From the NCBI GenBank assembly GCA_965178125.1, contig OZ237752.1, forward strand, positions 248,001 to 312,000: a stretch of 64,000 bases of DNA. Direction: 5' to 3'. This DNA comes from Bilabrum cf. latius (Eukaryota). The notes beneath the pieces are model-generated. The model did no database searches. It had not been told where the DNA came from and saw only the letters and a list, made by a program, of their open reading frames with translations. The translations under genes were made by a program, and so were the position numbers. This document shows, one piece after another, positions 1 to 59,000 of the stretch (position 1 is the stretch's first letter; each line of letters starts with the position of its first letter).

Positions 1-3000
1 GCTCTGATTCGTACAGACAGCCATCGATCGCATCCACCAGCAGCCAGAAGAGGGTCAGGCCCAGAGCAATCACCAACGGACTGAGCAGCACGATCGTCGT
101 CCGCAGGAAGTACGCAGACCCATGAGGCATCAGCGACGCCAGACCCGAGGACGCGCCCCCAACACCCAGCGTCACGGCCTCATGAACGCCAAGCGAGTCG
201 GCCAGCAGCTGCTCGTCCGTCTCCTGCGCGTGCGGCCAGTCCAGCGGCGTAGCAGTGGCGTTGTTGTCCCCGGATGCCGCCGCCCGCGCCGCGATCACTC
301 CCCATTCCGCTGCTCCCGCGTCGTCCACCGATACGTTGGCTGCCTGCGCCAGGGCCTCTGCGTCGTCTGTGGCCTGCTGCAGCATGCAGTCAAGGCTGAG
401 CACGTCCGAGCTGACGCTGGAGACAGCTGACATGCTGTTGAAGAGACGGATCGCGGTGTCGGGCCACTTGAGCTTGAAGGATGCCGCGATTGCCACCACC
501 TGAATGTGTGAGAAGAGGATCTTGATGGCCGATACGGTCAGGTCCCGGCGCTCCTTAAGAGTGCCATCTCGTGCATCTGATGGGAGCGAGGCTTCGTCGT
601 CTGCGGAGGATGCATTTCCAGATGCCGCCGGTACAGCTGTATGCACTCTGCCAGACCTGCCATGCATCATGGGGTTGTCCATGATCATGCGTGGACCATC
701 GCTAGCTCCCGACTCGGATGAAGCGCGAGTCATGCTCGTTGGGCGATCGCCATCGGATCCGGGTTTGATCCGTCCAGCACCCCCTACCCCTAGCTGTGCC
801 GCCAGCTTTTCTGCTGCCTGCGCTCCTTGCCTCAGCGCATTGAGCACAAGGCCGATGGACACAAGCACCATTGTTGTCGTCACCAGCACAGCGATCGTAA
901 ACACGGCCAGTCCACCCCGGCACTGCCTGCACTCGTACTGCCCCCATGGCGTGTACCCCGGCTGGCACCGCGCGCACAGCAGCCCCGTGTATCCCTCCTC
1001 GCAGCGCTCGCCCACCCACAGGGGGGCTCCTGCGTCGGTCAGCTCACTGATGCTGGCTCCCTGCGCCGCCGATGTGTTCGATGCTGACTTGCGTATTGCA
1101 CGAGCCCGCTGCAGCGACATTGCCTGTGGCGGAACAATGCCTTCGTACAGTGACTGCAGCGACACATCAGACCACTGTGCCTACTGGCTTGACTGGAGTC
1201 GTCGCTGCGCGGTCGATCCGGAGGAGGGCACGAGGGCATCTGGCGCCCCCTCCTCGGGAGACCCACCAGCCTCAGCCGCATCCAATCTCGCTAGAGACAG
1301 GCACGACTCAGGACGAAGGCACCGCGAGAATGCCGCGCGACCAGGCACCCACGGCAGTCGCTGGTACCCCGCCCGTGCCGCCACCGTGAACGTGGAGCCC
1401 CCATCGCACAGCGAGGCCTCTAGGTCGCAGGGACGGCACACCCACTCGGCCATCGGCAGATGAGTCGTGAGGAACTCCGACGGCGAGCATGACGAAGGGA
1501 TGCCGGGCGTCCACGCCGAGTACGGACTGGATCCGGCGGCGCTGCGGGCCCGCACCCGCACACTCAATGGTCGCGCATCGATTGCCGTGACTACGGCCTA
1601 CATGACAGCAACCCCGCCGGAGGAGCTCCACTGCGCAGTCAGCTCTTCTAGGTCCACATCGAATGCAGTGGATTCGGTTGAGGCCGTGGAGACACTCGTG
1701 TTGGTCCCATCGCCGTCTATTGCCACCTCCGAAATCGACCTCATGTCAATCTAGAAGCCGTCCAGCGGCTCCAGGCCAAGGTCGTTCACCGAGACCGCGG
1801 CAGGGTCGGGGAATGCCCAGCGGACCGTGATGCGGTCATTGCGCTCTCGCCATGCCTGCACATGCTGCGGGAGGTCCGGCCAGGGACTTCCTGTGACACC
1901 GTACGTGAAACGTGGAGCACTCGTCTCGTCGCTGGAGAGCCCGCCGCTCTGATGCACCACCACGGGGAGATCATCGAGGCTCCCGCCCGACAGCGATGGC
2001 ACCACGCACTCCAACGACGTCTCTCCGCGTACGACTACGTCGAGGCACTCGTGTGGACCCATGCTCACACGGGATACATCCGCGCTGCTTCGGCCCAGAC
2101 TCGTCCCGGCGATCACAAGTCGCTCGCCCGCCAAGGCGCTGTCGGGCGTCACCGAGGTCACGATGGGCACTCCTAGGGGCGAGAAGAGGCGGTTGCGAGG
2201 ACTCGTCTGGCTAGCCACCTGCACCTCCACCAGACTGCCCGCAGGCCAGCTGGAACCCTACACGTCCACACAATCGATGCGCGTGCTGGACCTCCACCGA
2301 ATGCTCCCGCATGGCTGGCCGCCCACGAACACCGCCTCCACGTCGGTCTGTCGGAAGCCGAAGTGGAGCCCATGGATGGTGAAGTCGGCCGAGACAAACG
2401 GCCCCATGATGCTGTATGCAGGAAGCACATCCTCCACACTCGGTCCCGCGTAGCTCACCACGTGCTGAGATGCCGATGGCAACCCGGTGCCACCCGACCC
2501 GACCCCCGCCGCTGTGGATGAGTTGCCGCTCAGTGTGTCGACCACCACCGCAACATCCACGCCCACTCCAGGCTCGCAGTACGCCAGCAGCTCCTCGTCC
2601 GACACCCACACAACCACCCTGGACATCTGGCCTCCGACGGTCACTCCACGGACGGCCCATGGACCCGCCCCAAGACCTGAGCCCCGGATCTGCATCAGCC
2701 CCGCAGCTGCACCCGCTCCCACCAGGGTTGGAGCCACGGCAACTGCGTCCGTTGCTGACAGCACCACAGACACTCGTGAGCTGTTTGCCCCCCGCTACTC
2801 CCAGTCGTCAGACCCCGCCAGCTGCAGCAGGGCGGCCAGCTGCACCGACGGAGACTCTCCATCTCCGCGCGCTGCCTGCACCCTCAACGCCGACCCGCTG
2901 GTCACAGCATCGGCGGTCCCATTCGACGGGAACGTCCTGGGACTCAGCACCTGCAGGCGCGGCCGTCCAACCAGCAACAAGCTGCCGCCTGGAGCCATGG

Positions 3001-6000
3001 AAGTCGTCAGCAGCTCCGAAGCGGCTGCCGCATCAAGGCCCCCCGTGGCATCTTGCCCGCCTACCCGCAGCCGCATGTCCACCAGCTGTTGGCGTGTACC
3101 AGCCAGCTCCATGGCCAGCCCACCGGTGCGCCAGTCCTGCACCGAGCATCGCACGCGGACCAACATGTCCACCGATGGATCCCCCAGGGCCGGAGACGTG
3201 CCCTGAATGGCCACCTCTTTGCAGCTGGTGTTCCATCCCGGGCCCTCCAGCAGCACTACCCCGAGGCCGTCCGAGCTCAATGCTTCCCACTGCGTCAGGC
3301 TCCAGCCGGCGTGCTTCACGGACAGCTCCAGCCGCACGTCTTGCTCCTCAGTGTAGGCGACCGCCCGCGGGTAGCTTGCATTGATACTGCCACCCATAAC
3401 GGCAACCGACTGGATCCGCGGCGCGGCATACCCCACCGTCGGTGCCCCTGTCTCGAGGTTCTCGCCGTTCTGGGCTGAAACCACCCGCACCGCGTGGCCA
3501 ACGCCCACACCAGGGGCCAGCAGGCAGCCAATGCGCACCCCAAGCTCGCGCATCTCGACATTGGAACACGCAAATGGTCCCACGGTGACTGATACAATGT
3601 CCTGCGGGGACTAGCCCAGCCCCTCACCGTGTACATCAATCCAGCCTCCCTCCCCGGGAACGACCGCCGGCGTCACCGAGGTAACTTGCACAGGCGGCTG
3701 GAAGGGGAAGGCAGTCAGGTCCACGGCCTCTCGACTCCCTATGACCACCCTCACACTGTAGTCGCCAGGTGTCCACGGCGGAGACAGGCCGCTGCATCGA
3801 ATGGCCGGTCGTTGATCACCCTCACGCTCGGGCACTCCCGACCCGACACCAGCACGCGGGCTGACGTGCCGATGCCCCCTACTCGCGGGATCCCAAAGTG
3901 GCGGCCCGTGACGATCACCTCGTACGACGAGTTCAGCACGTTGTAGACGGTTTGTGGCGACGTGACCACTTGGTCCATCTCTGGGGCGGTAAATCGCAGC
4001 ACACCAACCGCGCTCACGTAGTCGCGGCCCCATACGGTCCGCACCCGCACCACGCCCGCCCCGCCCTCGCTGGCCGACAATGTGCAACGGATCACGAAGT
4101 CGGACTCGACCGTCACGTTGGTGCATGGCGAGCCGTCCACATCTACGGACTCGATGTAGCGCCCCTCGCCCGCCCCCAGCTGCACCCCCAGCAGCTGCAC
4201 GCTCTCCCCACCGCTGGGACTCACCAGTGATGGACTGGCCCCCAGCACGGTGGGGTCCTCCACGACTAGCAGCTGGCTCGCCACGGTAGTCTTGGGAGCA
4301 GTGGGGGCTGGGGTTGTGGAGGAAGACCAGCCTGCGCCACCGGCGGGCTGCAGCGTTGTGTTTATGGCCTGCTTCCATTCCAATGCAAGGGCAGCGCCTC
4401 GGGTCTCCCCGTCGGTCTCATTCGCGGCGTTCACCAGCAAGCTGCCAACCGATACCATACTCACTGCATCAGACGTCACCAGATGTGCGCGCACCCCGCA
4501 CCGCAGCTCCGTGGCAGACACAACCTCTAGAGGGTCGCATCTCTGGCCACCGAGCAGCACTGCCCCCACAGCCAGCTCCCCTCCACTCGTTGCAAGCCCC
4601 GTGCCTCGAACTATGACATCGTGTCTATACTAAGGATCCAGGTGCGTCTCCAGCATCGTGGTGATGCGCACGGTCGCTGGACTTACGGACTGCACCGTGG
4701 GATCCGGCACCGAGACCCAGGCAGCCCGCATGGCGGCCGCTTCTGAAGGGGCAGCGGCCGTCTCATCCTCCACCGCGATTCGAGCTGTCTCCAGCCAGTC
4801 CAGCCCCGGAAGCGACGCCGTCATCGCGAACGGACCCCCCGATCCGTCGGAGCCCAACTTGCACTGAAGGGTCGTGGATGCGGCACTACCCACAGCTGCC
4901 AACCCAGAGCGCCCGGCGGCATCGCACCCAAAGGGGCCCACACGAGCGCGTGCAATCTGCCGACTGCTAGTCACAGATGCATTCGCCAGGCTTGTCCATG
5001 GATACAAGTCGTCGGAGTCTTCCATCAGCAGAGTACCAGCCCCTTCCAGAGCCGCATCCCAGCCCCCGCCTGCACCCCAGCCGTCGCCCACGGGAGCAGC
5101 AGCTAGCACATCCCCCGCCCCCACCTAAGGCCCCCAGCCACCCGACCGCAGCAGCCTCAGGGGACCCAATATACCCACAGCCAAGCACGGCAAGGCGCTG
5201 ACACTGGCATTGGCGGTACCTAGTGCAGTTTGCATATCCCACCTCGCCGCCAGCTGGATCCTCCTTTCGCACGGATCCTATCCTGAGCTCCTTTCCTCTG
5301 TCTGGACCAGAGCGGCGCCCTCCTGCCCGTCATCCGTTGACCACCGCCCATCTGAATACCGAATCACGACCGCGGCCAGTCCAGGCAGAAGCGCCCGCGC
5401 TGGATTGCACTGCACGATGGTGGTGCCCCTGCCGGCGTGCAGGCTGGCGGTGGCGCAAGGCACACCGCCCACCCAGACGTGGGCTGCTTCCTGTGCCCTG
5501 CCCAGATTCGATGGTCGAGGCAAATACACGGGTCGCCGAAGCACCACAGTAATCGCATCGTTGGCACGGCCTGCATGCACCGCGCTGCATCTGGCTGCGG
5601 GACCCACCCAGGCGATGTCCTCGTGAGGCAGCCCCCCTTGGCCAGCTCCCGCCGCCTGGCCCCCGAGCAGTCCCTCCGTCAGCAAGCAGCCTGCCTGCGC
5701 CAAGTGTCGCATGATGGCATCTCCGCCCCACGTGAGATTGGCCCCGGCAATCGCAGCGTCTGTGTCAGGAGCGATCCCGAGAGCTGCGGCGCTGGTGGGG
5801 TCGAGAGGTGGCCAGCCGCCACCACCTGAGCTCGCAACCAGGGTGGCATTGAGGGCAGCACACATGCCGGCAGTGCCTCCGCAGTCCAGCGCACGCGCGC
5901 GTTGCTGGTCCATCAGTCGCATCCAGGGTGGTGTGGAGCTCAGATTGGCCGTGGACGCCTCCATGCGCACCAGACTGCGCCCACTACAGCCAGGGGCAGC

Positions 6001-9000
6001 GGCCAGCAGGTGCACCTGCTGCGTGGCCAGGTCGCTCTGCATACCGACCGTAGTCTCTAGCGCCGTGCCCAGGCGGCACGAGGGCCCCACGCCAGCGGGC
6101 GGAGGCGACCCAGGCTCTTGCCCGTGCAGTGAATCGGCTGCGTGCAACCGCTCCACGATGGCGGATGCATTCCCCATCGGACCCAGCCGTGAGTGCAGGT
6201 CCACTTGTACCCTCGCAACTGCCCCCGCTGAGTCATTGTACCCTGGTGCCCCGGCGTAGAAGACCACGGTTCCGTCATCTCCGAAGCCGAGCAGCTCCAC
6301 AGAGGCTCCAAAGGCCGAGTCCTCAAACAGAAGGGGCCAGCGGCCGTCCAGTCGCAGCGGCATCAGCGCTGGAGACACGAGATGGTGCCCTGCCACTGTG
6401 AATGAGAGCCTGTCCGGCGCTCCTGTGTCCCCTATCACGGCCAGGTGCATCATCACCACGGCACCGAAGCGGCCCCCGCCGGATGACCCGTCAGCCCAGT
6501 CCGGCGCTCCCACCAGCAGCGACACCTCGCCCGCTGCCTCCCCAGGGGACACATCCGGCTCCTGTCCCTCCAGCCGCAGAGGCCCCAGGAACTCGATCGC
6601 CGCCCCGAAGCTGTCGCCCGTACTCCCAGTCGGAGATGCCAAAGTGGCAAGCACCCGCCCCGACCACGCCTGGCCCTCTCTGCTCAGCGACAGTAGCCTC
6701 ACCTCGTCCTCTAGAGGAGCGCCCGCAGCCACCACGTGGTCGTGCAGCCACGTGCCGCCCAGGAGCGCTCGACCCATGCAGGCAACCGCTGCCCCTGTGG
6801 ATGACGGGCCCTCGTGCACTGTGTTGTTGCGGAGCAGTTGCAGCGGCGGCTTGGATCCGCTCCCAGGGCTAGATGCCGCGACCGTGGCCACTCCCACGCG
6901 CCCGGAGAATGCATCGCCCACCAGCAGCGCCAGACTGCCGTCGCCCTGCCTCGAGTCTCCAAGGGAGCACACCGCGCTCCCCTGCAGCAGGACTGCATCT
7001 GGGGAGGTGCCAGGCTCGGATAGGGTCGGCGTGCTAGATCCGTACCCGACACCCATCCTTACGCGATATCCTCCTCGAGAGAGCCACGAGTGGTGCACCT
7101 GGCTTGCGTGTTGCATGCCAGCCCCGCCAGATGCCATCGAGTCACATGATGCTTCCAGCACGATTACAGGAGCATCGCTGGCACCAAAAGCTCCAATCGA
7201 GGACTCCAGAGAGCACGCACCACCCTGCAGTCTGGCTGCCGAGCCTGCTACGGCATGCGCTGGGATGGGTGGCAACGACTGTGAGATCTAGGGGTATTCG
7301 GTTTGGGCCGCATGGCTACTGTTCATAAGAAGAACCCACACCGCACCTTTACCAGAGCCCCCATCATCATCTAGATAGGCCCCCACGGCCATGTCCACCA
7401 CACCGTCTCCGTCCAGGTCCCCCAGCGATACCGCAGAACTGCCGAACAGGTCACTATTATCCAGCTGCCCTGTGAAGCCGCCCTGGGTGTCCGATATCTT
7501 CTGATGCGACTTCACGGTTCCATTAGAATACAAAACGAGTACCCACATAGCCCCTTTACCAGAGCCCCCATCATCATCTAGATAGGCCCCCACAGCCATG
7601 TCCACCACCCCGTCTCCGTCCATGTCCCCCAGCGATGCCACGGAGCTGCCGAAGTAGTCACCGTTATCCAGATATTCCATGAAGCCGCCCTGGGTGTCCG
7701 ATATCTTCTGATGCGACTTCACCATGCCGTTGGATCGAAGGAACAGCACCCATATAGCCCCTCTATCACCGCCCCCATCATCATCATTCATTGCTCCCAC
7801 AGCCATGTCTATCACCTCGTCTCCGTCCAGGTCCCCCAGCGATACCGCAGAACTGCCGAAGTAGTCAAAATTATCCAGCTACCCCGTGAAGCCGCCCTGT
7901 GTGTCTGATATCTTCTGATGCGACTTCACCATGCCGTTGGATCGAAGGAACAGCACCCATATAGCCCCTCTATCACCGCCCCCATCATCATCTAGATAGG
8001 CCCCCACGGCAATGTCCCCCGCCCCGTCTCCGTCCATGTCCCCCAGCGATGCCACAGAAAAGCTGAAGCCGTCACCATCATCCAGCTACCCCGTGAAGCC
8101 GCCCTGGGTGTCTGATATCTTCTGGTGCGACTTCACCATGCCGTTGGATCGAAGGAACAGCACCCACATAGCCCCTGTATTGGAGCCCCCATCGGCATCT
8201 CCATAGGCCCCCACGGCCATGTCCACCACACCGTCTCCGTCCAGGTCCCCCAGCGATGCCGCAGAACTGCCGAAGAGGTCATCATCATCCAGCTACCCCG
8301 TGAAGCCGCCCTGGGTGTCTGATATCTTCTGATGCGACTTCACCATGCCGTTGGATCGAAGGAACAGCACCCATACAGCCCCTCTGAACGTGCCCCCATC
8401 GTTATCTAACCTCGCTCCCACGGCCATGTCCACCACCCCGTCTCCGTCCAGGTCCCCCAGCGATGCCGCAGAGATGCCGAAGAGGTCACTATCATCCAGC
8501 TACCCCGTGAAGCCGCCCTGGGTGTCCGATATCTTCTGATGTCGTAGCTCCGTCGCGGCCGCCGGCATCCCTCCAGCCACTTTCGGATACACGAGTACGC
8601 GATGTGGCCCCGAGCCCCGCCTCCGGATCAGGGCAGACTCCTGCTCTGACCCAACCCGCAGCCGATCCACCCCACGTAGGCCGCAGCCCACGCCACCATC
8701 AGGGAGGCCCATGATGTCCGTGCAGTTGGCCCCGAGGGCCCGCGCACCTGCTGCGCATGCCTCGCCAGCCTCCCCGCACCCCGTGCCGTTGAACCCGAAC
8801 ACCAGATCTGCGCCCGCCATGGACAGCAGGTCAACGCCCGTCAGCTCCTCTCCGCCCCCGTCGTCGCCCTTGATGCTCTGGGGCTCGATCCGCACAGTGG
8901 CCGAGGTGCTGCCGCCGATCGCCAGGGTGCAGTTGGACCGCGGCAGCACCCCGCACGAGGTTGATCGATACGGAGGCTGCCGCACAATGTGAGGGCCCTC

Positions 9001-11105
9001 CCCTGGACACCCGTAGTAGTTGGCGCTGATGGGCCACAGCCGCACCAGCAGGTCAATGCGCCGAGTGCCATCCAGCCCAGCCGCACGCAGAGAGATCGAC
9101 TGCCCCATCCCCCGAGAGGTGGCCTACTCCCCGGCCAGCAAAGTACTGCCAGCCAACAGCATGAAGTGCAGTTCTGCAGGCGGCTCTGAGGCAGTAACAA
9201 TCCAGTTGAAGCGCAGGGTGGCCACCACGTCGCCCTGCAGGTACCCCAGGGGGAGCAACGCGCGGGCGGAGGCACACCCCGACTGCTCCAGGTGCACGGA
9301 ACGGTAGCCGCCAGACTCAGGCAACACCGCCTCTGCGTCGTCGTACAGGGTCCCATCAACCACGTGTGCCTCCGTCGCAAGGGACCACCCCGCGGGCACG
9401 CTGGCAGGATCCACCACGTACTCGTCCTTAGATAGCCCGACGTACCACTATGGCGACGGTGAGGGTCGAATATTACGCGGGAACAGCACCCACATAGCCC
9501 CTCTATTAAAGCCCCCATCATCATCGCGATAAGCCCCCACGGCCATGTCTACCACCCCGTCTCCATCCAGGTCCCCCAGCGATGTCGCTGAATAGCCAAA
9601 GTTGTCATGATTACCCAACCGCCCCGTGAAGCCGCCCTGAGAGTCTGATATCTTCTGATGCGACTTCACCGTGCCGTTGGATCGAAGGAACAGCACCCAC
9701 ATAGCCCCTCTATCAAAGCCCCCATCATCATCTTCATGTGCCCCAACGGCCATGTCCACCGCCCCGTCTCCGTCCAGGTCCCCCAGCGATGCCACAGAAA
9801 TGCCAAAGTTGTCATAATTATCCAGCTACCCCGTGAAGCCGCCCTGGGTGTCTGATATCTTCTGGTGCGACTTTACCATGCCGTTGGATCGAAGGAACAG
9901 CACCCATACAGCCCCTCTCTAAAAGCCCCCATCACGATCGCTATCAGCCCCCACGGCTATGTCCACCACACCGTCTCCGTCCAGGTCCCCCAGCGATGCC
10001 GCAGAATAGCCGAAGCCGTTGCTATTGTCCAGCTACCCCGTGAAGCCGCCCTGGGTGTCTGATATCTTCTGATGCGCCTTCAGCGTGCCGTTCGATCGAA
10101 GGAACAGCACCCACATAGCCCCTCTCTAAGAGCCCCCATCATCATCTCCAGTCGCCCCAACGGCCATGTCCACCACCCCGTCTCCGTCCATGTCCCCCAG
10201 CGATGCCGCAGAACTGCCGAAGTAGCCTTCACGATCCAGCTACCCCGTGAAGCCACCCTGGGTGTCCGATATCTTCTGGTGCGACTTTACCATGCCGTTC
10301 GATCGAAGGAACAGCACCCACATAGCCCCTGTACGAGAGCCCCCATCATCATCGTTATCAGCCCCCACGGCCATGTCCACCACCCCGTCTCCGTCCAGGT
10401 CCCCCAGCGATGCTGCAGAACTGCCGAAGAGGTCATCATCATCCAGCTACCCCGTGAAGCCACCCTGGGTGTCTGATATCTTCTGGTGCGACTTCACCAT
10501 GCCATTGGATCGAAGGAACAGCACCCATACAGCCCTTGTACGAGAGCCCCCATCATCACCATTAGATTTATAGGCACCCACGGCCATGTCCACCACCCCA
10601 TCTCCGTCCAGGTCCCCCAGCGATGCCGCAGAATAGCCGAAGAGGTCACCATCATCCAGCTACCCCGTGAAGCCGCCCTGGGTGTCCGATATCTTCCTAG
10701 TCTCCTGAAGTATATCAGACGCTTCCGACAGCTCACGCTTTCCGAGCAGCTAGTACTCCGTCTGCTGATCGGCTAACTACCGACTGCGGGAAGGAGCTGG
10801 GTGACTTTGCGCACGAAAGGTATGAGCATCAATGATATAAAATGCTACAGTATAACGTTAATTGGGTTCCTGTCAGAAATAAACTGTCGCAATCCTAATC
10901 TTTTGGACCATGATATAAATTCTCACCCAATTGCGTGATCTCCCTCCGTTCGCTGGTAGTTCACAGGCAAACTCGCCTCGCACCGCGCAAGAACAAGCAC
11001 GTACAGCACCAATCGCGCGACTTGTCGTGTAGCGTGTCTAACTGGTCGTGGTAGGCTTGGGGGCTTGCCCAGTATGATACTGGAGGTTGCTTGATCACGC
11101 TGCAT
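1..11105 (-). CDS. Giant surface membrane protein (3' partial): signal peptide, 12 FG-GAP repeats, degenerate FG-GAP region, several IPT/TIG-like domains, Cys-rich segment and multi-pass TM region; needs TAG=Gln
   Basis: Probable ATG at 11105 followed by hydrophobic LVLYVLVLARCEA. A phase-compatible GT-AG intron lies at 10784-10926. ORF-track pieces 9448, 9124, 8500, 7288, 5278, 4630 and 3751 share one frame, and 3611, 2795, 2258, 1751 and 1181 share a second frame; the joins within each frame are TAG. There is one apparent 1-nt frameshift at ~3805. The C-terminal part reads CEEGYTGLLCARCQPGY..ECRQC, then TM helices and KILFSHIQVVAIAASFKLKWP, and runs off the window. Confidence 0.85.
7325..8540 (-). 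repeat. Coding tandem array of six 207-nt FG-GAP repeats (block B)
   Basis: Equivalent codons at 7465, 7672, 7879, 8086, 8293 and 8500 (period 207). Unit reads [63 protein letters not shown]. Confidence 0.95.
9480..10700 (-). repeat. Coding tandem array of six ~207-nt FG-GAP repeats (block A)
   Basis: Equivalent codons at 9619, 9826, 10033, 10240, 10447 and 10660 (last interval 213 nt). Same unit as block B. Confidence 0.95.
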
Positions 11106-11888
11106 ACCTGGTGCTCTCCCTTGGCTGGTAAGCATCCGCACTGCGCTCCTTGACGCGTGAAGGGCGCTGGATGTCTTGTTGCAATCAGACGCTAGAGTCC
11201 CTACCGGGCGGGTGGCCCACATTTCTCGCATCCGGATCTGATCCGGATGCGGACTACTGTCTCAGCAGCTTCACTTGGTTCGCACTTGGCGGCTTTCCTC
11301 CTTGCAAACGCCCCAAACCCAATGTAGCTCGTTGTATATGAAGCACCAGAACTCACACTTCAGCGTAGGCTTGTCGGCGATAGCCAACAGATTCGGAAAT
11401 TAAATAGTGCGGCCGTGAGGTGGTAGGTACCTAATAATTTGACTCCGTCCCTCGCCGGCGGCGCCTCGCCCGCGGAACCGGAAACGGAGTGACATTCTGG
11501 TTTGGGCACAAGAGTCATGACTACTTCACCGAAGCCGAAAATCTCAATTTTGTTCCAGATTTGCCACACTTTCAGCGATGGGGCACGAGCAGTCAGCTCC
11601 ACTCGGGCCTGCACACAAGCCGAACACTTTCGGCGAACAGTCCGCTCAAGCAATGGCGCTACAGCCAAGCCGAGACACGTAATTGCTTCGGGACGCGGGC
11701 GATGACCCGGTCGAGATGCTGCACTGGCTGTACGACCGGGGGTGCGTCTGCTTCGACACACCGGCTGTCGGAGATGGGATCTGGGAAGGGACGATGTGGC
11801 AGGCTGAAGGCCTGCCCGGCAGTTCGTGGCTCAGCCGAGGGGCGAATGGGGCCCTCCCCATGACGATTGCCGATAGTTTCAATAGCAG

Positions 11889-13481
11889 TCAGCTCGTTTC
11901 GTCCAGAATCTTGACGCACTCCTCGTGGCCACCCAGCTCGGCAGCACCCCTGGCATCGACAAGGTCCACCTTGCCATCCTTGCACTCCTTCTCTCGCTTC
12001 ATATCCATCCCACCGGCCAGCTTCCCCAGCCTCAATCTTTTGGCCAGCTCCAGGGGGCGCCCCTCCGATGCGGCCTACCACACGAGGCGGGCGTCCCTCT
12101 GCGCCTCTACAGCCCGCCGGAACTGGACCATCCGTGTCATCCTCGGGTTGAAATGATGGGGAAACATGCGCTCAAGTTCGCTGCGTTCGCTGGGATCTCC
12201 CCAAAAATCGCGCAAGAGCTTCATGCGCTAGTGGATGGTAAGGCCGGGCTCATCGATCGACCGCTGCAATTCCGGCCAGCCGTGTGCCCAGTGCCCGGGG
12301 AGGACGGAACACTGCGTCGCGGAACAGAATGGGGAAAATGTACCCTCATGTTCAGGAAATAGACCACGTCTTACCAGATCGTGCCAGCTTTATTTGCTCA
12401 CCTTTCTGTCTACGTACATACTGCTCGTGTGCAGGCTGGCCTTGAGATCCAGCTTGGCGCCGGCGTCGATGAGAACGGCCACCACCACCGGTGCGTTCTA
12501 CGAACTCGCAGCGTAGTGAATCGGAGACAATTGATTTGCGTATGTCTCCTGCGTAGATCGAACTGAAAGTGCACAAGCATCATTTGCCTCAGCGCTCTTT
12601 CCATCACGAGGAGGCTGTCCAACGGGTCCACACGGAGGCTCACTTCGATTGATGGGGTCCCAAGAGAAATAGGCTATTCAATGCGGTAACTGAATGACCA
12701 TGTATGCAAATCCCTTTCTGTATCAATCTGCGGCTAGCTTTTGGCCTCCAAGTCAGCGCCTGCCTTAATCATCAAAATGCATGATTTGGCCATGCCAATC
12801 ATTGCGGCATGCATCAGCGGAGTGCACCCATCCTGCGACCCTATAGAGTGTCCGGATCTTAAGAACGAGTATTCATTGTTTTGTACTCGGCAACTTATTG
12901 CCGGTAAGAGGTAGTACTTCTTACTTTGTCTCCCGCGTTCACGTCAGCGCCTTGCTCAATCAGGAGCTTGCAGCAGGAGTAATGACGGTCTGCATCCATG
13001 TTCCGTGCCGCACAATACAATGGTGTCTATTTATGTGGGTGCTGCTATCAGAAGGCAATCGGAAACCACGATGGTTGCATCTGAGACGCGCATCTGGCAG
13101 ACATAATTGGATTGATTGCAGCATCATGATGATATCTCACGGTCACAGCAGAAACACTTGCCCCTGATGAGATAAGGATCTTGCATAATTCTTCATGCCC
13201 ATCAAGAGCAGCCTAGTGCAGCAACGAATAACTGATCTGCGAGCATTCAAATATTGGATTCGTGTTAAACTCAACCGGAAATGATACTACGTAGGTCATG
13301 CAGAACTTTAGCGCTGCAATTTACCCACGCTAGACCCACGGATGGTCCTATGTACGTCCTTATTGACCAAAACCTCTCGTGCCTTGGGACAAGTACTCCC
13401 GAGAATGGCGATCGCCCTCGAGACGTCTGATTTCTAGACTGCATCCTCGAGGGACTCAAAGTCGGTCACAGGGCGAATCAT
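11889..13481 (-). CDS. Multi-exon ankyrin-repeat protein, copy 1 (TAG=Gln)
   Basis: ATG at 13481 (MIRPVTDFESLEDAV*KSDV...LVNKD). GT-AG bounded exons encode SLLH*AALDGHEELCKILISSGASV, TPLYCAARN..CKLLIEQGADVNAGDK, DGCTPLMHAAMIG..IKAGADLEAKS and SPIHYAASS*NAPVVVAVLIDAGAKLD. TGA at 11889-11891. Not seen in the ORF track. Confidence 0.85.
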
Positions 13482-19245: not shown

Positions 19246-21109
19246 TCAGTCAGTCCCCCTTGTGCTCTCGTCCAGAGCCGGGAAGGTCTTGTAGATCTCT
19301 GCCATGAGACGAATGGACAGGTCCACGTCCTGCACGCCGCACATCTCCCGGATAGAATGCATGGCCAGCTGGGGCACACCCACGTCCACGGTCCGGACGC
19401 CCAGCCTGGTGGACATGATCGGCCCGATGGTGGACCCGCACCCTATGTTCTGCTTGATCACGAACTCCTGCACGGGGACCCCGCAAGCCTCTGCGGCCCG
19501 CCGCACCATGGTGGCAGTGACCGCCGTGGTGGAATACCTCTCGTTGCAGTTGGTCTTGATCACCAGGCCCTCCTGCATCTTGGGCCGGTGGTTGCAGTCG
19601 TGCTTGTCCCCGTAATTGGGGTGCGCCGCGTGAGCCATGTCCGCGCTCACGAGGATGGACTTGCGCATGGCCACGGGCCATGACCTGGGCTTGTCCTCCC
19701 CGTGGATGCGACGCATCACCTCCCCGAGGAACGTGGACCCGGCCCCGGGCACCGACGCGCTGCCCACCTCCTCGTTGTCGAAGAGCCCGACCACGCGGAC
19801 GTTCTTCTCTTCCTTCAGCCCACCCCCGGACTCGATGCTCTCCGTGAGCGCCCGCACGCACGCGAAGCTCATCAGGAGGTTGTCCAGCCGAGCCGCGAAG
19901 ATGAACTCCCGGCGGGTGCCGCCCACGGCCGCGTCCTGCGTGTCAAACATGCACAGCTCAAAGTCCCTGATCATGGCCGGTGTCACTGCGGGGGCCCCCG
20001 CTGGCCTGCCCTCGGTGATGCTCTCTGCCAGCAGGCGGAGGAGCTCCGGGTGGTGCCGGCTGCCCGCCTTGTAGGCGGAGGATTTCTCCTCCTCGTCCTT
20101 TTTCTCGGTGCCCTCGTCGTCCGCCTTGCCTGCTCCTGTCGCGGCGCCGCCGGCTGCGGAACCGTCCACCTTCCCGTCGGTGCCCAGAGACTCCTTCAGG
20201 TGGGTCGCCATGACTGCCCACAGGTGCGCCTCCTTGTCCACCCCGAACTTGTCGTTGGTCCCTCGATCCAGGTGAATGGCCAAGGAGGGGATCCTCACGA
20301 TAGGCCTCTTCACGTTGGCCAGAGCCGAGGTGACGGCCCCCGTCTCGGGGTCGTCGAAGAGCACGCGGCCGGCCACGCTCAGGTCGCGGTCGAACCAAGT
20401 GCGCCAGATGCCGCCGCCGTACCACTGCGTACATTCGGTCGAACCAATTGGATGAGAGACGGACAGGGGTGCGGGCTACTAAACACGGCGAATGGCGATA
20501 GCAGGCGGCGCTGCGGAGCGGCAGCCAGCGGCTTGCCTGCACTGTGGTACCCAGGCCAGCCGCGCAAGGCTTGCCAACTGCAAACTCAAAACAAGGGCAA
20601 CCACTCACCTGGGTCCCAATGCAGTCGAAGCCAGACTTCGTTGCGGTAGAGATGGGCTTCAGCTTCAAGCAAGGCGAATCCGTGTGTGCAGCCGAGATGG
20701 TGAACCCATTCCCAGGCTCATACCGCTCTCCAATAGCAAATGCAACCAGTGCGCTCTAATTCCTGGTGACGTAGTACTTGCCTCCGGGCTTCAGGTCGGT
20801 CCACACCTCTCGCTCGCTCAGACGTACATATCCATCGGCCTCCAGCTGCTTGCACACCTCGTCCACGGCATGGAACGGCGATGGAGACTTGTTCACAAAG
20901 TCAAGGAAACTGTCAGCTATCTTAAGCTGGTCATCGGACGGCTTGCCGGGCTTGGCCAGCGGCTCACTCGGCGATCCAGCAACTGCGGCCATTGTTCGCG
21001 CGGGGTACAGATATGACGGTGACGCTGCCTTTGGCAGGTGAGATCGGGACAATCGAGGGAACGACCGGGCGAGCGGCTTGCGAGAAGAGCGAAGGAGGCT
21101 CCGAAGCAT
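19246..21109 (-). CDS. DNPEP: Aspartyl aminopeptidase (peptidase M18), 2 exons, one in-frame TAG
   Basis: Motifs SPSPFHAV, YYVTRN*SALVAF, AHTDSPCL, YGGGIWRTWFDRDL, RLDNL, FDNEEVGS, SADMAHAAHPNY, CGSTIGP and AMHSIRE. Intron at 20425-20608, TGA at 19246. In-frame ATGs at 21109 and 20992. Confidence 0.96.
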
Positions 21110-21426: not shown

Positions 21427-24400
21427 TCACACCCTCTGCTTCCTGCGGCCGCTCCCCCGCCCCCTCCTCCTCACCTTGCGCCTGCCAGCCTCCTCGTCCA
21501 CAGCACCGATCCCGCCGCCGATCAGGGCAGCAGACGCGCTCGCGTCCCCGCTGTAGGCGCCGCTCTTGCCACCGCCCTTGCCCCGCCCCGTGTGCGCCGC
21601 ACCCCCGGCGCCCCCCCCTGCCAGCTCGACCCCAAGGCCCACCCCCCCCCTCTGCTTCGACTTAAAGGAGGCCTAAGAGCCGCCACCCCCCGACCTGCTG
21701 GATGCCTTGCCCCCGGCCCCCCCGCTTCCGCCCGAGGCACCGTCGTCGCCCTCCTCCACCAGCGGAAGGCCCAGCGCGTCAGCACCGAGATCTGTCTCGA
21801 GGAGACCCTGCACCGCCTGCGGGGAAAGTTCCGCAAGAAGGCGCCGCGCAGGGTCCTCCCCGGGCCCGCTCCGCGACCCCAGCAGCGAAGCGGCCGCCAG
21901 CCGCACCCCGCCGAGCCCAGAGGCGCCCGCCACCGCCTGCACGGTACCCAGGTCGGCAGCGGGACCCCAGACCGCCACAGCGCGAAGCACACCGGCGCGC
22001 ACCGCCGTCTGCGGCGTGCTGGGCAGCAGGTGCAGCCCGCTGGCGAGGGATGCCCCCAGCCCTGGTGACACGGCGGAGGAGCCAGCGCCACCCGCCGCCC
22101 CGAGACCTGCCTCGTCGAGGCCTTGCTGTTCCCCGTTCCCCTGAGGGTGGCCAGACACGGCCCGCTGCAGCAGCCCAGACCCTCCCGGGCCCCCCGCACC
22201 GGCCCCGCCGAAGCCGTCCATGTCGGGGGAGCGGCGCCGCGCGCTGGCCTGCGGATCCAGGAGGGACGACAGGGCGTCAAAGGCGCTGCGGGACGAGCCC
22301 TGTGACGAGTGCTCCACGCCCCCGCGACCCCTCCCGCTCGCGGTCGAGGACGACGACGACGAGGAGCCTGGGCCCTGCTGCGTCCCCGGCCAGGTGCCGT
22401 GTGCGGTGGTGGGCACGCCCTCCAGAGCGAGAGGTCGCCCGCCCGCTGCGCCGTTGCTGTTCCCCCCCACCCCCGCACCGCCGCTCCCGTTCGCACCCTC
22501 CGACGAGTCGCCCGATCCAGCACCCGATCCCGATCCCGCCGCGACCCCACCCAGCCGCGCGGCCTCCTGCAAGCGCACCTCCACAGCCGCCACCCGCATC
22601 TCCCGCGCCTCCACCGCCGCATCCATCCAGCAGGCCCCGGGGCCAGAGAGGCGCGAGGGGTCGCAGTGGGGGTCGCACAGAGCCCGCATGCTGCCGGGCC
22701 GCACCGGCGGCGCCTGCGCCAAGCCGTCCTCTCTGCGCGGCGCCTGCGGAACCACGGCCGCCAGCGCCGGCGGTGTCACCAGACGGGCGGGGGCCATGGG
22801 CGCCGCGCCCCTGCAAGCCCGCAGGAGGTGCCTTCCGGGGTCCTCGAGATCCGAGGCCCACAGAAGCGGGGAGCCAGCCGACCCGCCAGCGGCGCCGCGC
22901 GCTGCGGAACCGGTCGCCCCTGGTGCCTTGACGGTGGCGTCTCGCTCGAGGAGGGACAGCCCCGGCACAGCCACAGCAGATGCTCCCAGCGACATGGCCG
23001 GCAGCGGGGGGCTCTGCCCCTGTGCCCCGGCCGCGGGGACGAGCCCGGGAGATCGACCCGAGGGGCCGGCAGACGAGGCACCGCCCGCCCGCAGGATGGT
23101 GGGCGTGGCTCCGCCCGCGGAACCCCAGGCGCCGCGCGGCTGCGAGCCGGGGTGCGTCCCCGAGTGTCGGTCGTCAAGCCCCGCGGCGCGCGCGATCGGG
23201 CCGTCGAGCACGCCCTGCAAAGTGAAACGCCCGCCGGGCAGCTGCTCGAGGGAACCGTCCACCACGCCGACCGGACCAGCAGCGCCGCTGCTCGATGGTG
23301 ACCCGCCCGACGAGCGGATGGCGCCTGGGTGTGACGATGACGAAGCTCCGGCTGAAGCTCCCGCCGTACCGGGAGGCAGCGTGAGGGTGCCGCGCGACTG
23401 CTGGTTCCGCTGCAGGCCGGCGGAGGCCGACGGGGGCGGGGGCGACTGCAGCGCCTGGCCGGGCTTCGCAGAGCCCTGGCACACCCTGCGGTGTTCATAA
23501 AAGTGTGACGAGTGGGATCAATGGAATGGAGGATCGCGAGAGCGAGGGATTTTGCGGGAACGGCAGAAGCGTGCCAAGCGCGGCAGCGCAAAGGAGAACA
23601 GGGAATGACGGGGCCCATGCACTCGTCACACCGCTCACTTTAGGATGCGTCCCTCCAGCACCATGTTGTTCATCCCGCGGATGGCCGCCTTGGCCTCTTC
23701 GTCCGTCGAGAACTGCAGGTAGGCGCTGGCGCAGCCGCCACCCCCTGCCGCTGCTCCCGCTGCCCTCCCCCGGGCGGGCGCGGACCTGGACAGCGCAATC
23801 TTCTGGATGCGGCCGTAGCGCCCAAAGAGGTGCTTAGAGCGCAGGAGGGAGTCCTTCGCGGCCACGAGGGGAAGCCCGATCACGTACACCAGGTTGTGCT
23901 GAATCTGCACCCGGGAGTGGGCAGCAGCAGCACCACCACCAGCGCCTGTCGAGGCTCCCGCAGCTGCCGCGGCTGTCGAGCCGGGCCCTGTTGCCCCACC
24001 CCCGCCGGTGGACAGGGCGCGATCCCTGCCTGACGAGTGTCCCCTGGCGTGGTGGTGGCTGCCCCCTCCCGCCTGCGACGACTGGGAGCCACCCTGCGCC
24101 GATGCCTGGGCGGCCGCGCGCTGCTCCTCCCTTCGCCGGGCCTTGGCGCGCCGCTCCCTGTCCTTGCGGAACTTTTGTGCCCTGCGCATATTCAATGGGG
24201 GTGAATGGGTCGGTGGCGCGGCGATGTGGGCTTGGGTCCGTGCGGGCAGCAAAAGGGGCTCAGATCGGTGCAGCAGCGTGCTCCCACTGGCCGACTGATG
24301 CTTCTGGTTGGCACGGCAACTGGTGCTCCTGCGTGCAACTCGCAAGTTTTGGCGTGGCCACTCATTCGACCGTTAGGTCGTCAAACTCCCTATTATTCGC

Positions 24401-55815: not shown

Positions 55816-56069
55816 TATTTTTCTGTCTTCACACCCTTCTCTGGGCTTTTGCGCGATCGTGCAATGCTACACAAATTTGGTTGCAACCGCACGCAAGGGT
55901 GCACCAACGCCCCTATCGGGTTGACATTGAAGGCCTTGGAGCCTCCGCATAAGCACCTTCCAGACCTCTCGCCAAGAATTAGAATCCTGCGGCACTAGCA
56001 GATAATTGGGTTTTGATCATAGCGATACTGAACACATCTGTAGCTGAAGGCATGAAGGGCTTGAATCCG

Positions 56070-59000
56070 ATGACACACTCTCGAAGGCACGGAGCTACAC
56101 GGTCTCCAGTAGCGCTTATAGCTGTGATATTCCTACTCATATCGACTTGCTTCGTATCGTTGACAAGAGCCGGCCTTGAACCAGGTAAGAGACATTCGTT
56201 GATGGATACGAATTCAGTTGAAACAGCAACACCGCTTGAGCATTTGCGCGTTTACATGATCTACCGCGATGATCTATGCAACGCAGATCTCATGTGGATG
56301 GCTGCGCCTCTGTCTGATGCATCCATTTCTTCATAGCGAGTATGGGAGCCCGTCAATGGGATGAACGTATCCGTGTCGCTCGCCAGCCCGGCCAGCGTCC
56401 TGATCACGTACTCTCTCCCCGTTGGGGCCGACAAGCCCAACTTACCCGGTGGAGATTTTCTCACCACGCCGGGTCTACCATCTTCCGGACAAGGCGATTT
56501 CGTCGGGTCCAGGCTGCTTGTCAACGGGCGAGCCTACAGATAGTCTGGCTCGCACGCGTCTCCCCTGTCTTCATTGGAGCGTTCTGCTAGGCAGTTGCGC
56601 GGAATATTAACTATTTCATTGCCAGCCGGTGAGCACACAGTCGTGGTTCAGTGGAAGAAGTGGGGAGACTGGGTGCGCCAGTGGTACTCGAGGCCTAGCC
56701 TGGCCGATGGGTTTGCGCAAGGGAGAGCGGTGACGGTGGGCGCCGTGTATCTCACACTCAACCTGGCTTCGCCTCTCTCATAGGCAGTGATTGCAAGGGG
56801 TGACGAGTGGTAGGACGTTCCCGGAATGTCAGTTCAGTTTTCGTTCGACCCGGATGCAGCAGGCGAGCCTAGCGTTGCAGGCAAGGTGTCGGATCGGTTC
56901 GCATTCGCCTACGTTCTCCACGTGAGACCCAACCAGGCCCCCGGCGCGGACCCGTTCAAATCAAAAGACGTGCTATCCACGCGACTGGCTATCGATTCGG
57001 TCCCGTACAGGGCCTCCTCGAGCCACTTTAGGACAGTGACGAGGTCGTTCGCCTCTGGATCCCTGGTGGGCGCCCTCGCCCTGGACCTGCCGGCTGGCAA
57101 CCACACCGCAAAGCTGCAGTGGCGCAAGTCAGCCGGCGGCTCCGTTCGAACGTGGTGGTCGCAGCCTACTTTCCTTGACGGGTTCGTGACCAGTCGCACG
57201 CTGGCGGTGTACAGGGACCGGTTTCCAGTCGAGGCCGCCACCGGCCTGGCCGGATTTCCAGGGGCAGGGTAGACAGGGGCCGACGCGGACGGATCATCCT
57301 CTTCCACGTCGTGGCGGCAGGTGCGCGGCGGCCTGTTGCCCTTGTCGCTTCACAAAAAGACGTTCATGAGGCTGTCGTACGCCGTGTCTCTGTCGAGGTA
57401 CGGCCAGCCGACGTTCGACTCGAACACGTGGCGGCGCTGGGGGACGGTGTCCACGCGCCTGGTAGTGGATGGGAGGCCCTACCGTTCCACCGCCACCAGC
57501 TTGGATGGGGGCGTGCCTGCGGGCGAGAGCATGTCGGGGACTGCTGTGCTGGCACTGCCGCCCGGCGACCACACGGTGGTGCTGCAGTGGAGGCCGCAGG
57601 GCGAGGCGCCGGCCGACTGGGCCGGATTGCTGTCTCTGTTCGATGGGTTTGCAGGTGCGACCATCACGACGTCTGAGGCGAGCGCCTCCAACAGCCCGCC
57701 AAGGGTGCGGGTACCCCCGACAATCCGTGAGAACGACTGGACCGTCTCGTTCTTTGAAGACGAGCCGGGCAAGGTCGAGGGCATGAGGGTGACGGATCCA
57801 GACACGGACATCGAGCCCAGCATGGAGGTTGAGGTAACTGTTAGTGTTGTGCATGGTAGCGTGCTGCTGGGGTGCGGACCAGACAACCCGGTGGCTCCTG
57901 GGAGAGTGAGCCTTGCGGTGGACCAGGACGTCGCTGCTCTGCCGGTCGAGGTGAGCGTGACCGTGCCTGGTCCGGACCCCTCGAGCCCGACCAGCGGTGC
58001 CGGTTCCTTTGGCCGGGAGATTGCACTGCGAGGAGCCATCGATGCCGTCAACAGCGCCATCAGGGTGATGAGGTATGCCCCCGACCTCGACTACAACGGC
58101 AACGATACACTGGTGGTGCAGGTGGATGATCTCGGCAATGTTGGCTCCGGTGGCACGGCCCTCTAGAGCTATGGAAACGTGTCTTTTGACGTGCGGCCTG
58201 TCAATGACGAGCCGAGCATAGAAGCTCCCGCGAGCCTGGTTGTGGACGAGGACAGTACAACCCAGCTCTAGGGGATCCTGCTGAACGACACTGACGCGCT
58301 CGATGGCTTCCGCTCCTCGGTGGCACTGGCTGAGATTGCCATGGCTGGCGGCATGCAATGGGAGCTGGGGCTCGCGGTAGTTGCCGGAACGGTCTCGCTG
58401 CCAAGCACTGCGGTGTCAGGCGTGGTCATTCCTGCAGTTAGCAACGAGACTGCTGGTGCGTACAGCTCCGACGCCCTCGGCACAGCTGCGCCAGTGCTAC
58501 GGTCAGACTTCAACGTGTCAGGCAACGGCACCGCTCGCGTAACTGTATCCGCGAGTCTGGCAGTTCTCCGTTCGCTTCTGCCTGCGATCGTCTATGCGCC
58601 GCTCCCTGACTCTAATAGAAACCGGGTCAGGGAGCAGCTGTCAGTCTCGCTGTCTGACATGGGGCTATCGCGGGGCGTAAGAGGGAGCGTACCGCACGTC
58701 CAGCCTGGTGAGAGCGCCACCGACAAGAGGGTGCAGTACGCTGCAGTCACGGTGCCTATCGATGTGGTGCCTGTGAACGACGCCCCTGTGCTGGAGGAGG
58801 GTGAGGACTCGGTCATTACGCTGAACAGCCTCACCGTGGACCAGGCTGACCTGGAGTCCACGGATGACATCACCGTAACGCTGTCGGCATCCATGCCAAA
58901 CACAAGCCTCGATCTGCCTGCCGCAACGGCGGACGTGGACATTTCCCACGGTGACGAGGCGTGGTCCGGCGAGGGCGCCTACCTGCAGCTCACAGGCCCA

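Follow-up and report, generated by a model that had tools for sequence, protein, structure and literature searches.

The FG-GAP array on the minus strand of this locus raises the question of what the triplet TAG means when it recurs at one and the same position of a protein repeat. Within the whole stretch of 64 kb that was analysed (the window), 12 FG-GAP units of 69 codons each, one of them of 71, share a column that is written TAG in nine units, CAG in one, CGG in one, and TAT in one. The TAG codons occupy positions 7879-7881, 8086-8088, 8293-8295, 8500-8502, 9826-9828, 10033-10035, 10240-10242, 10447-10449, and 10660-10662, and the remaining three codons are CAG at 7465-7467, CGG at 9619-9621, and TAT at 7672-7674, all on the minus strand. 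The 12 positions named in the original prediction are all correct and represent the low coordinates of these minus-strand codons. The residues before the column are GGFTG, or GGFME in the TAT unit, and the residues after it are LD, or LG in the CGG unit. Two more in-frame TAG codons of the array, which the prediction had not included, are located at 10126-10128 and 9919-9921 in the context DGG-S/F-q-RG, with q at the TAG. An intron excising the array TAGs is ruled out, as the 69-codon units align end to end with their paralogs and with the FG-GAP model, the TAG position lying inside the alignment.

The best explanation, to which we assign a probability of about 0.9, is that UAG encodes glutamine in the genetic code used here, with UGA and apparently UAA still serving as stops; jointly with this code, the window is assigned to the nuclear genome of a eukaryote with few introns and a GC content of about 62%, and the FG-GAP gene to a giant surface protein, either secreted or in the membrane, in which two six-unit, integrin-alpha-like propeller arrays are followed by TIG domains. 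The codon of the shared column that follows GGFTG is thus a Gln codon; nine units spell it TAG and one spells it CAG. The proposal that TAG is a sense codon synonymous with CAG is supported, but its cause is a genome-wide code and not a property of the array, as TAG is found in every long gene of the window. The evidence for synonymy is of three kinds: TAG/CAG swaps between orthologs in both directions, a conserved Gln column written TAG, and the retention of TAG in spliced RNA-type contigs.

The 14 coding frames of the window comprise 16,698 codons with 87 in-frame TAG and no TAA or TGA, compared with about 104 TAG, 46 TAA, and 292 TGA expected from off-frame triplet rates; TGA plus TAA account for about 2% of the off-frame triplets in the same genes. 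The coding frames were delimited by TAA and TGA, such that the zeros inside them arise partly by construction, and therefore frame length, Pfam matches, and homolog alignments carry the argument. When TAG is read as sense, the longest frames of the window increase from 1593, 1531, and 924 codons to 2682, 2368, 2150, and 2083 codons, whereas reading TGA or TAA as sense yields no comparable lengthening. Five of the 14 frames have Pfam support (FG-GAP/TIG, M18, PUF, TIG, and PH). Of 83 in-frame TAG, 9 (10.8%) have CAG or CAA as a neighbour; the corresponding share is 7.5% over all codons and 20% for CAG itself. This is a weak test, in which one frame was mis-set.

The M18 aspartyl aminopeptidase (19246..20992, minus strand; Pfam E 6e-109) is composed of exon 1 at 20609-20992, an intron at 20425-20608, and exon 2 at 19246-20424, and terminates with a TGA that coincides with the homologous C terminus. 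Its in-frame TAG at 20756-20758 aligns with CAG/Gln in a relative of 82% identity. The two exons are joined across the GT..AG intron in contigs of X7 and X9, and spliced contigs are also present in X6; the joined form is absent from X1, the 8,855-base contig of which retains the intron. The spliced contigs of X7 and X9 cover positions 20609-21086 with zero differences, and therefore the TAG at 20756-20758 is present in the spliced form; the same zero differences rule out RNA editing of this codon. X6, X7, and X9 are only tentatively taken to represent RNA; X6 was rated "probably DNA", although it contains spliced joints and one end with poly(A) plus adapter. Over the FG-GAP array, X6 contigs fill every bin from 7208 to 10462, and several array bins are empty in X7 and X9. 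The ACBP and M18 genes showed no lineage-typical signal in their poly(A) regions.

The competing reading that survives best, although improbable, is an ambiguous UAG that specifies Gln inside genes and serves as a context-dependent stop at some gene ends, as in Condylostoma and the karyorelicts. What leaves room for it is that the frame ends inspected number only 11 and are bounded by TAA or TGA, such that a TAG end would be read through by construction. All 11 ends, however, are TGA (nine, including that of M18) or TAA (two) and are plausibly placed, and M18 ends where its homologs end. In addition, the base after in-frame TAG (C in 34 cases, G in 31, A in 14, and T in 8) has a distribution like that of the base following CAG, and therefore indicates no special TAG context.

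Codes in which UAA and UAG are both read as glutamine (NCBI table 6) are found in many ciliates, the hexamitid diplomonads, green algae of the Dasycladales, Cladophorales, and Trentepohliales, and Amoeboaphelidium. Similar to the code of the window, they reassign a stop to glutamine and use UGA as the main stop. If such a code were used here, TAA would be missing merely through GC-richness, which we regard as very unlikely. UAA and UAG are described as usually changing together (PMC11687900), and TAA is scarce window-wide, the two strands together containing 369 TAA in about 128,000 triplets. CAA, however, is not rare in the coding frames (143, compared with 528 CAG), and this ratio, when applied to the 87 TAG codons, predicts 23.6 TAA, none of which is seen in the 16,698 codons of this one 64-kb window. 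Moreover, the long frames are barely lengthened by a sense TAA, and TAA closes two frames, at 54559 and 18976, one of these TAA codons lying about 50 bases from where an RNA-type contig ends. Accordingly, TAA is apparently not a sense codon here.

Codes in which UAG alone is reassigned and UAA is kept, as in the window, are also described with other amino acids, namely Ser in Scotinosphaera and Leu in the rhizarian exLh and some ciliates (PMC8271138, PMC5304391), and a residue other than Gln, such as Ser, Leu, Glu, Lys, or Tyr, has to be weighed for TAG. This reading is likewise very unlikely. Close relatives (protein identity 58-96%) were aligned at 11 TAG sites, and opposite TAG they have Gln at six sites, Glu at two, Leu, Val, and Lys at one each, and Ser at none. 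The six Gln cases are the M18 TAG of the window, which faces CAG in the metagenomic locus L001; an M18 TAG of L001, which faces CAG in the window; two TAG codons of L001 that face window CAG in a low-complexity protein gene (21427..23517, minus strand), the L001 ortholog of which carries three TAG; and positions 420 and 257 of the TIG-repeat protein. The codon swaps between orthologs thus run both ways. Among the five non-Gln comparisons, two lie in low-complexity stretches, where the alignment is doubtful, and a third concerns the penultimate residue of a fragment. A single step also separates Lys (AAG) and Glu (GAG) from CAG. The N-terminal 1,200 codons of the TIG-repeat protein (56013..59612, plus strand), with nine in-frame TAG, were read against homologs. 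TAG 177 (AYRqSGSH) falls in a conserved column, at which 22 of 28 homologs with 29-51% identity have Gln. TAG 108, 718, and 753 fall in variable columns, in which Ala, Thr, and Ser predominate among distant homologs, as a non-Gln residue might lead one to expect, and Gln is found in 1 of 22, 2 of 30, and 0 of 30 homologs, respectively. Predicted protein fragments of relatives end exactly before the window TAG 108 and TAG 718 of this protein, which points to TAGs shared with those relatives, and one fragment ends exactly before a window CAG. An EGF module with the sequence CGqGFC can be set beside the paralogous modules CGQGSC and CGQGVC. For the PH-domain protein, a short-fragment search returned two fragments, neither of which crosses a TAG, and the PUF-domain search returned one match.

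With UAG read as glutamine, the array TAGs have no special meaning for the FG-GAP gene and are Gln codons in a surface loop. Tandem Repeats Finder reports two arrays, 7334-8541 and 9480-10696, with a period of 207, 86% matches, and 0% indels. On the minus strand, array 1 (u01-u06, 9451..10698) has TAG in the shared column of u01-u05 and CGG in u06, and array 2 (u07-u12, 7297..8538) has TAG in u07-u10, TAT in u11, and CAG in u12, such that the shared column is without TAG only in the final unit of array 1 and in the final two units of array 2. Mean nucleotide identity is 86.6% among the TAG units and 81.3% between TAG and non-TAG units. The original prediction that TAG has spread through the array is correct as to the spread, but a single variant carried by duplication or gene conversion accounts for it rather than nine independent events. 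One TAG/CAG variant, in either direction, probably reached the inner units of both arrays through gene conversion or unequal crossing-over, with the units at the edges retaining or gaining CAG, CGG, and TAT. Simple copying of a six-unit block is ruled out, as only u02 and u08 pair by position. The suggested dN/dS comparison indicates modest purifying selection and is not decisive alone: dN/dS is 0.64 over all columns of the array (bootstrap 95% CI 0.42-0.95) and falls to 0.36 (CI 0.12-0.81) when only the FG-GAP motif columns, in which synonymous variation is present, are counted; the corresponding values among the nine TAG units only are 0.75 and 0.43. The repetition of TAG in the array is one inherited state, and what exceeds chance is the long open frame itself.

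This frame runs from 10857 to 3751 and comprises 2,369 codons with 19 TAG, no TAA, and no TGA. The main exon of the FG-GAP/TIG surface protein (3751..10783, minus strand) is open for 2,343 codons, likewise with 19 TAG and neither TAA nor TGA, and ends with TGA at 3751-3753. Pfam matches in this exon are FG-GAP (PF01839; E 4e-39 in nine stretches), FG-GAP_3, FG-GAP_2, and TIG. The two arrays are separated by a non-repeat insert of about 300 codons (8539..9450, minus strand), which contains in-frame TAG at 9448-9450 and 9124-9126. Upstream of the main exon, a probable first intron is located at 10784..10926 (minus strand) with canonical ends (GTGAGA...CCGCAG); this assignment derives from one low-depth X7 contig, the loose end of which at 10784, 11 letters in length, matches the window once, at 10928. 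The probable first exon (10927..11231, minus strand) contains a signal-peptide-like hydrophobic stretch, and in-frame ATGs with top coordinates 11231, 11135, and 11105 are candidate starts. At the other end, the gene continues in the +1 frame (2..3805, minus strand), which is open for 1,268 codons with six TAG, no TAA, and no TGA, runs off the window, and contains TIG and DUF7630 domains and hydrophobic segments. The two frames are related by a one-base strain difference at 3807..3808 (minus strand), where an extra base in one X6 contig joins the main frame to 3805..2. The extra base at 3807 is found at 17.9/17.9 in X6, 0/19.5 in X1, 0/2.57 in X7, and 0/2.6 in X9, and the frame of the window ends at 3751 because the window, like X1, X7, and X9, is without it.

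The least probable of the readings considered, that the gene is dead and a nonsense mutation in one unit was copied through an untranslated array, would accommodate the single inherited state behind the nine TAGs, an array pN/pS of 0.64 that is not far below 1, and a window allele frameshifted at 3807 relative to one X6 contig, but is opposed by the absence of TGA, TAA, and indels from 830 array codons and likewise from the 2,343-codon main exon, by in-frame TAG in 13 other frames, including that of a housekeeping peptidase, by a pN/pS of 0.36 in the FG-GAP motif columns with synonymous variation, and by the 1,268 codons that remain open past the frameshift, such that an inactivation, if there was one, must be very recent and have no connection with the TAGs.

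The FG-GAP array of this surface protein is reminiscent of the propellers of integrin alpha, with which it shares Pfam FG-GAP repeats and DxDxDG calcium-loop motifs in the units. A PDB profile search retrieved integrin alpha (E 1e-14), and integrins alpha V, IIb, and 5 are the best matches in both sequence and fold. Array 2 is predicted to fold as a six-bladed β-propeller, with an AlphaFold2 model from a four-row alignment showing 24 strands at a pLDDT of 86.6 and a pTM of 0.85; the best Foldseek matches of this model are integrin alpha propellers (E 1e-18, TM about 0.55). The differences are that integrin alpha propellers have seven blades, whereas six units per array and six predicted blades are seen here, and that two arrays are present in one chain, followed by many TIG domains. 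A paralog at 41584-44760 likewise has six FG-GAP units per array.

The type of code observed, in which UAG alone is reassigned to Gln, is already known from a few lineages. Sources on nuclear codes of this kind (NCBI table 15 type) list the fornicate Iotanema spirale, the ciliate Protocruzia tuzeti, and two phyllopharyngean ciliate lineages (PMC11687900, PMC5304391). Similar to these, the window has UAG as Gln with UAA and UGA as stops, and the change appears recent, with a relative that is without it. The ciliate macronuclear genomes described in these sources (PMC11687900, PMC5304391) are AT-rich, whereas the GC content here is about 62%; in addition, the window has canonical GT..AG introns of 90-185 bases on a contig of at least 64 kb. 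In a FastTree phylogeny of M18, built from the window and those of 120 matches with at least 350 residues, the window falls among environmental sequences, one MMETSP entry, and one EukProt entry; because M18 groups only with environmental sequences, membership in the table 15 lineages is neither shown nor excluded. An Atlas search with M18 gave family-level matches only and no lineage. A metagenome scan with an alignment yielded 80 loci, of which L001 and L002 were studied and six more were characterized by ORF-length statistics only; a scan with a single protein query found nothing. A metagenome relative with about 80% M18 identity, close enough to be a congener, has the same code, and a relative at 53% is without it. 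Tentatively, and with less than even confidence, the code may represent a so far undescribed change of recent evolutionary origin, in which a GC-rich, non-ciliate protist lineage has turned only UAG into a glutamine codon and retained UAA and UGA as stops. Literature searches gave no report matching a GC-rich non-ciliate with UAG-only Gln, an absence not equivalent to the code being unreported. TAG is also read as Gln in the amber-recoded crAss-like and Lak phages (genetic code 15), which use their own suppressor tRNA during bacterial infection; those are phage genomes, whereas the window represents a eukaryotic chromosome with spliced, polyadenylated transcripts, as seen in the RNA-type contigs.

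By analogy with other such codes, UAG would be decoded by a tRNA-Gln with the anticodon CUA, which is described as reading UAG and not UAA (PMC5304391), and eRF1 may have weakened UAG recognition, eRF1 changes being reported to accompany such codes (PMC5304391, PMC11687900). ARAGORN found no tRNA genes (0) and Rfam gave 0 matches in the 64-kb window, and the eRF1 gene lies outside it. Nuclear codes that give UAG and UAA different meanings are presented as rare, only a handful being listed (PMC11687900, PMC5304391, PMC8271138), and each bears on release-factor specificity and its co-evolution with suppressor tRNAs. Dating the change and finding its molecular steps would be easier in a GC-rich case that has a moderately distant relative with the standard code. 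If the reassignment is indeed recent and limited to UAG, it would provide a tractable decoupling of UAA and UAG outside the ciliates, under GC rather than AT pressure on stop use. Annotation of this genome with the standard code would split most long genes. Protein databases already hold such shortened fragments from relatives.

The FG-GAP surface-protein gene lies on the minus strand, with an open frame of 2,369 codons that extends from 10857 to a TGA at 3751–3753 and contains 19 TAG, no TAA, and no internal TGA. It encodes 12 FG-GAP units in two arrays of six, array 1 (u01–u06, 9451–10698) and array 2 (u07–u12, 7297–8538), separated by ∼300 non-repeat codons. All units comprise 69 codons, except u01 with 71, and Tandem Repeats Finder reports a period of 207 with 86% matches and 0% indels for both 7334–8541 and 9480–10696. 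Alignment of the units confirms exactly the codon distribution described in the original prediction: at column x, the codon between GGFTG and LD, nine units have TAG (10660, 10447, 10240, 10033, 9826, 8500, 8293, 8086, and 7879), and one each has CGG (u06, 9619), TAT (u11, 7672), and CAG (u12, 7465). Two further in-frame TAGs are found in array 1, at 10126 and 9919. The TAG-bearing units are the inner ones, u01–u05 and u07–u10, and the edge units u06, u11, and u12 are also the most divergent of the 12, the layout typical of concerted evolution. A single TAG/CAG variant has been propagated through unequal exchange or conversion, between the two arrays as well. Plain block duplication of an array is ruled out, since position-wise pairing is seen for u02/u08 only.

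In-frame TAGs also occur outside the array. When TAG is taken as sense, the longest frames in the window increase from 1593, 1531, and 924 codons to 2682, 2368, 2150, and 2083 codons; taking TGA or TAA as sense yields no comparable gain in frame length anywhere in the window. We sampled 14 frames, five of them Pfam-supported (FG-GAP/TIG, M18 aminopeptidase, PUF protein, TIG-repeat protein, and PH-domain protein) and the rest comprising an EGF protein, an FG-GAP paralog, and long low-complexity proteins. Their 16,698 codons include 87 in-frame TAG, no TAA, and no TGA, compared with ∼104, ∼46, and ∼292, respectively, expected from how often these triplets occur out of frame in the same sequences; thus, TAG is near background in frame and TAA and TGA are excluded, a comparison in which the frames are bounded by TAA and TGA and the argument is carried by frame length and domain content, not by the zeros alone. 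The CAA:CAG ratio is 143:528, and the same third-base ratio for TAA:TAG predicts 23.6 in-frame TAA, where none is seen. The 11 frame ends, necessarily TAA or TGA given how the frames are bounded, comprise nine TGA and two TAA, and the C-terminal end of the M18 protein coincides with the end of its homologs. The next base after an in-frame TAG has a distribution similar to that seen after CAG. The proposal that TAG is a sense codon synonymous with CAG is therefore upheld by the frames and, as described below, by orthologs, and what falls away is any restriction to the array, as TAG is in frame in all 14 frames; the array only makes a variant of the nuclear code conspicuous.

The identity of the encoded residue is indicated by homologs. 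Outside the species, the nearest M18 homolog is P0002, which is encoded at a metagenome locus, L001, and is about 80–82% identical. The TAG of the window's M18 gene corresponds to CAG (Gln) in L001, and a separate TAG in the L001 M18 gene corresponds to CAG in the window. L001 also carries the gene upstream of M18 (21427–23517, minus strand), with 58% identity; two of its L001 TAG sites are paired with CAG in the window in conserved context, and in low-complexity sequence a third is paired with GAA and one window TAG is paired with CTC. For the TIG-repeat protein, the first 1,200 residues, containing nine TAGs, were used in a full HMMER search, followed by pairwise alignment of all hits of ≤1,500 residues. 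TAG 177 is Gln in 22 of 28 homologs, TAG 420 is Gln in both a 96% and a 65% relative, and TAG 257 is Gln in the 65% relative, in which TAG 267 is Val. TAG 1027 is Lys in a 92% relative, TAG 1131 is Glu at a fragment edge, and TAG 108, 718, and 753 are mostly Ala, Thr, or Ser, in variable columns covered by distant homologs only. Compared with close relatives, 6 of 11 TAG sites are Gln and none is Ser. Protein fragments of relatives stop exactly before TAG 108 and TAG 718, the outcome expected for shared TAGs that a gene caller using the standard code would take as stops; one fragment ends immediately ahead of a CAG in the window. In one EGF module the sequence is CGqGFC, with q the TAG-encoded residue, and paralogous modules read CGQGSC and CGQGVC. 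Adjacency of TAG to glutamine codons is a weak test. Together, these data support TAG as a glutamine codon, in a nuclear code that reads UAG as Gln and retains UGA and UAA as stops.

The locus is eukaryotic and nuclear. Three sequencing runs (X6, X7, and X9) contain RNA-type contigs in which exons are joined across canonical GT..AG introns; one of these contigs ends in poly(A) plus adapter and another in poly(A), and an unspliced 8,855-base contig of a fourth run, X1, spans the same introns. On the minus strand, spliced contigs place M18 exon 1 at 20609–20992 and exon 2 at 19246–20424, with an intron of 184 bases between them. Exon 1 contains the TAG at 20756–20758, and the spliced X7 and X9 contigs have no differences from the window over 20609–21086, so this TAG is neither removed by splicing nor edited. 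The M18 gene of L001 (2214–3629 in L001) lacks the window's intron (20425–20608), and its frame is continuous through CIGTQWYGGG. Across the FG-GAP arrays, all bins are covered by contigs of X6, a run flagged as probably DNA, and some bins are uncovered in X7 and X9.

Upstream in the FG-GAP gene, one low-depth contig of X7 departs from the window at 10784, and its 11 loose letters match the window once, at 10928; from this contig we infer an intron at 10784–10926 (GTGAGA..CCGCAG). The exon upstream of it contains in-frame ATGs and a signal-peptide-like stretch. At the other end of the gene, a single contig of X6 has an additional base, after 3807, that is absent from the window, X1 (depth 19.5), X7, and X9. 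By frame arithmetic, this base at 3807/3808 joins the FG-GAP exon to the frame 3805–2, yielding VINDSAIRC... through a TIG domain. That downstream frame (minus strand) has 1,268 open codons with six TAG, no TAA, and no TGA, and encodes TIG, DUF7630, and hydrophobic segments. The one-base length difference is between strains, and the window allele, with its frame ending at 3751, would encode a truncated protein lacking the C-terminal region. Since the downstream frame is intact, the frameshift is recent; it has no bearing on the meaning of TAG.

Selection on the array was assessed from pairwise Nei–Gojobori counts, with TAG taken as Gln and bootstrap 95% confidence intervals. The pN/pS is 0.64 (0.42–0.95) for columns 0–62, 0.36 (0.12–0.81) for FG-GAP motif columns 19–41, and 0.79 (0.50–1.14) for the remaining columns; the nine TAG units give 0.75 over all columns and 0.43 in the motif. 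The dN/dS check proposed in the original prediction indicates only modest purifying selection, and the interval for the remaining columns spans 1. At framework positions the residue is invariant and the codons vary synonymously. Loop columns 15–18, 21, 42–43, and 51–53 of the units (7297–10698) are hypervariable, with up to seven residues among the 12 units next to an almost invariant framework. The value outside the motif suggests that the propeller loops may be under relaxed or diversifying selection.

An AlphaFold2 model of array 2 only, calculated from a four-row alignment of paralogs within the window, predicts 24 strands that form six four-stranded blades (pLDDT 86.6, pTM 0.85). The best matches of array 2, by both fold and sequence, are integrin alpha propellers, which have seven blades rather than the six modeled for one six-unit set. 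The TAG-encoded Gln falls on the long loop that connects successive blades, after the final strand of one and before the first strand of the next, and the equivalent of column x in the window's FG-GAP paralog varies among D, E, S, A, and G. Column x is a surface position under no constraint, in which drift to any synonymous glutamine codon is possible. FG-GAP units occur in sets of six, twice in this gene and twice in the paralog (41584–44760), in which a Ser/Pro-rich linker follows each set.

The L001 contig (3.6 kb, 64% GC) has four in-frame TAGs over its two genes and uses the same code as the window. A second locus from the same metagenome, L002 (71% GC), encodes a 53% M18 relative, a Vps41-like protein, and a Twinkle-like protein. 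Its TAGs are confined to the first 28–40 codons of stop-to-stop frames, ahead of the earliest possible start codon, and none is found within ∼2,380 coding codons of the three genes, against ∼12 predicted from the rate in the window. Since L001 uses TAG and L002 keeps the standard code, with no internal TAG, the reassignment looks recent. The two loci bracket it. Named M18 matches are at most 44–50% identical, and a FastTree phylogeny of the window sequence and matches of ≥350 residues places the former among environmental sequences, one MMETSP entry, and one EukProt entry.

The variant is of a known kind, UAG to Gln only. In the literature, UAG alone has been reassigned to Gln in Iotanema spirale, Protocruzia tuzeti, and two lineages of phyllopharyngean ciliates (PMC11687900, PMC5304391); UAG encodes Ser in Scotinosphaera and Leu in a rhizarian and some ciliates (PMC8271138, PMC5304391); and UAR encodes Gln in many ciliates, hexamitids, some ulvophytes, and Amoeboaphelidium (PMC11687900, PMC5304391, PMC8271138). 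[quoted passage not shown] By analogy with these codes, the organism would possess a CUA-anticodon tRNA and a changed eRF1. The literature searched, in which matching by taxon is limited, held no match for a GC-rich non-ciliate with a UAG-only Gln code, and the carrier lineage is probably not yet listed for it.

Several other features of the window were observed. The TIG-repeat protein (56013–63998, plus strand) ends in at least four near-identical tandem blocks of ∼310 residues each, which run off the window and contain no TAG inside the copies; this expansion is very recent. At 11695, contigs of all four runs, X1 included, diverge from the window with the same 30 loose letters, marking a repeat boundary or else a site at which assembly and reads differ in structure. 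The segments 11714–12684 and 13805–14510 are duplicates within a minus-strand gene that has an ankyrin-like translation and many ∼92-base introns; one contig of X7 passes directly from 11844 to 13805, probably by collapse of the two copies in assembly. Lastly, one X6 contig over 15004–16666 has CT..AC introns up to 15695 and then GT..AG introns in the ACBP gene, which suggests either a chimeric contig or head-to-head genes with overlap between the 5′ ends of the transcripts.
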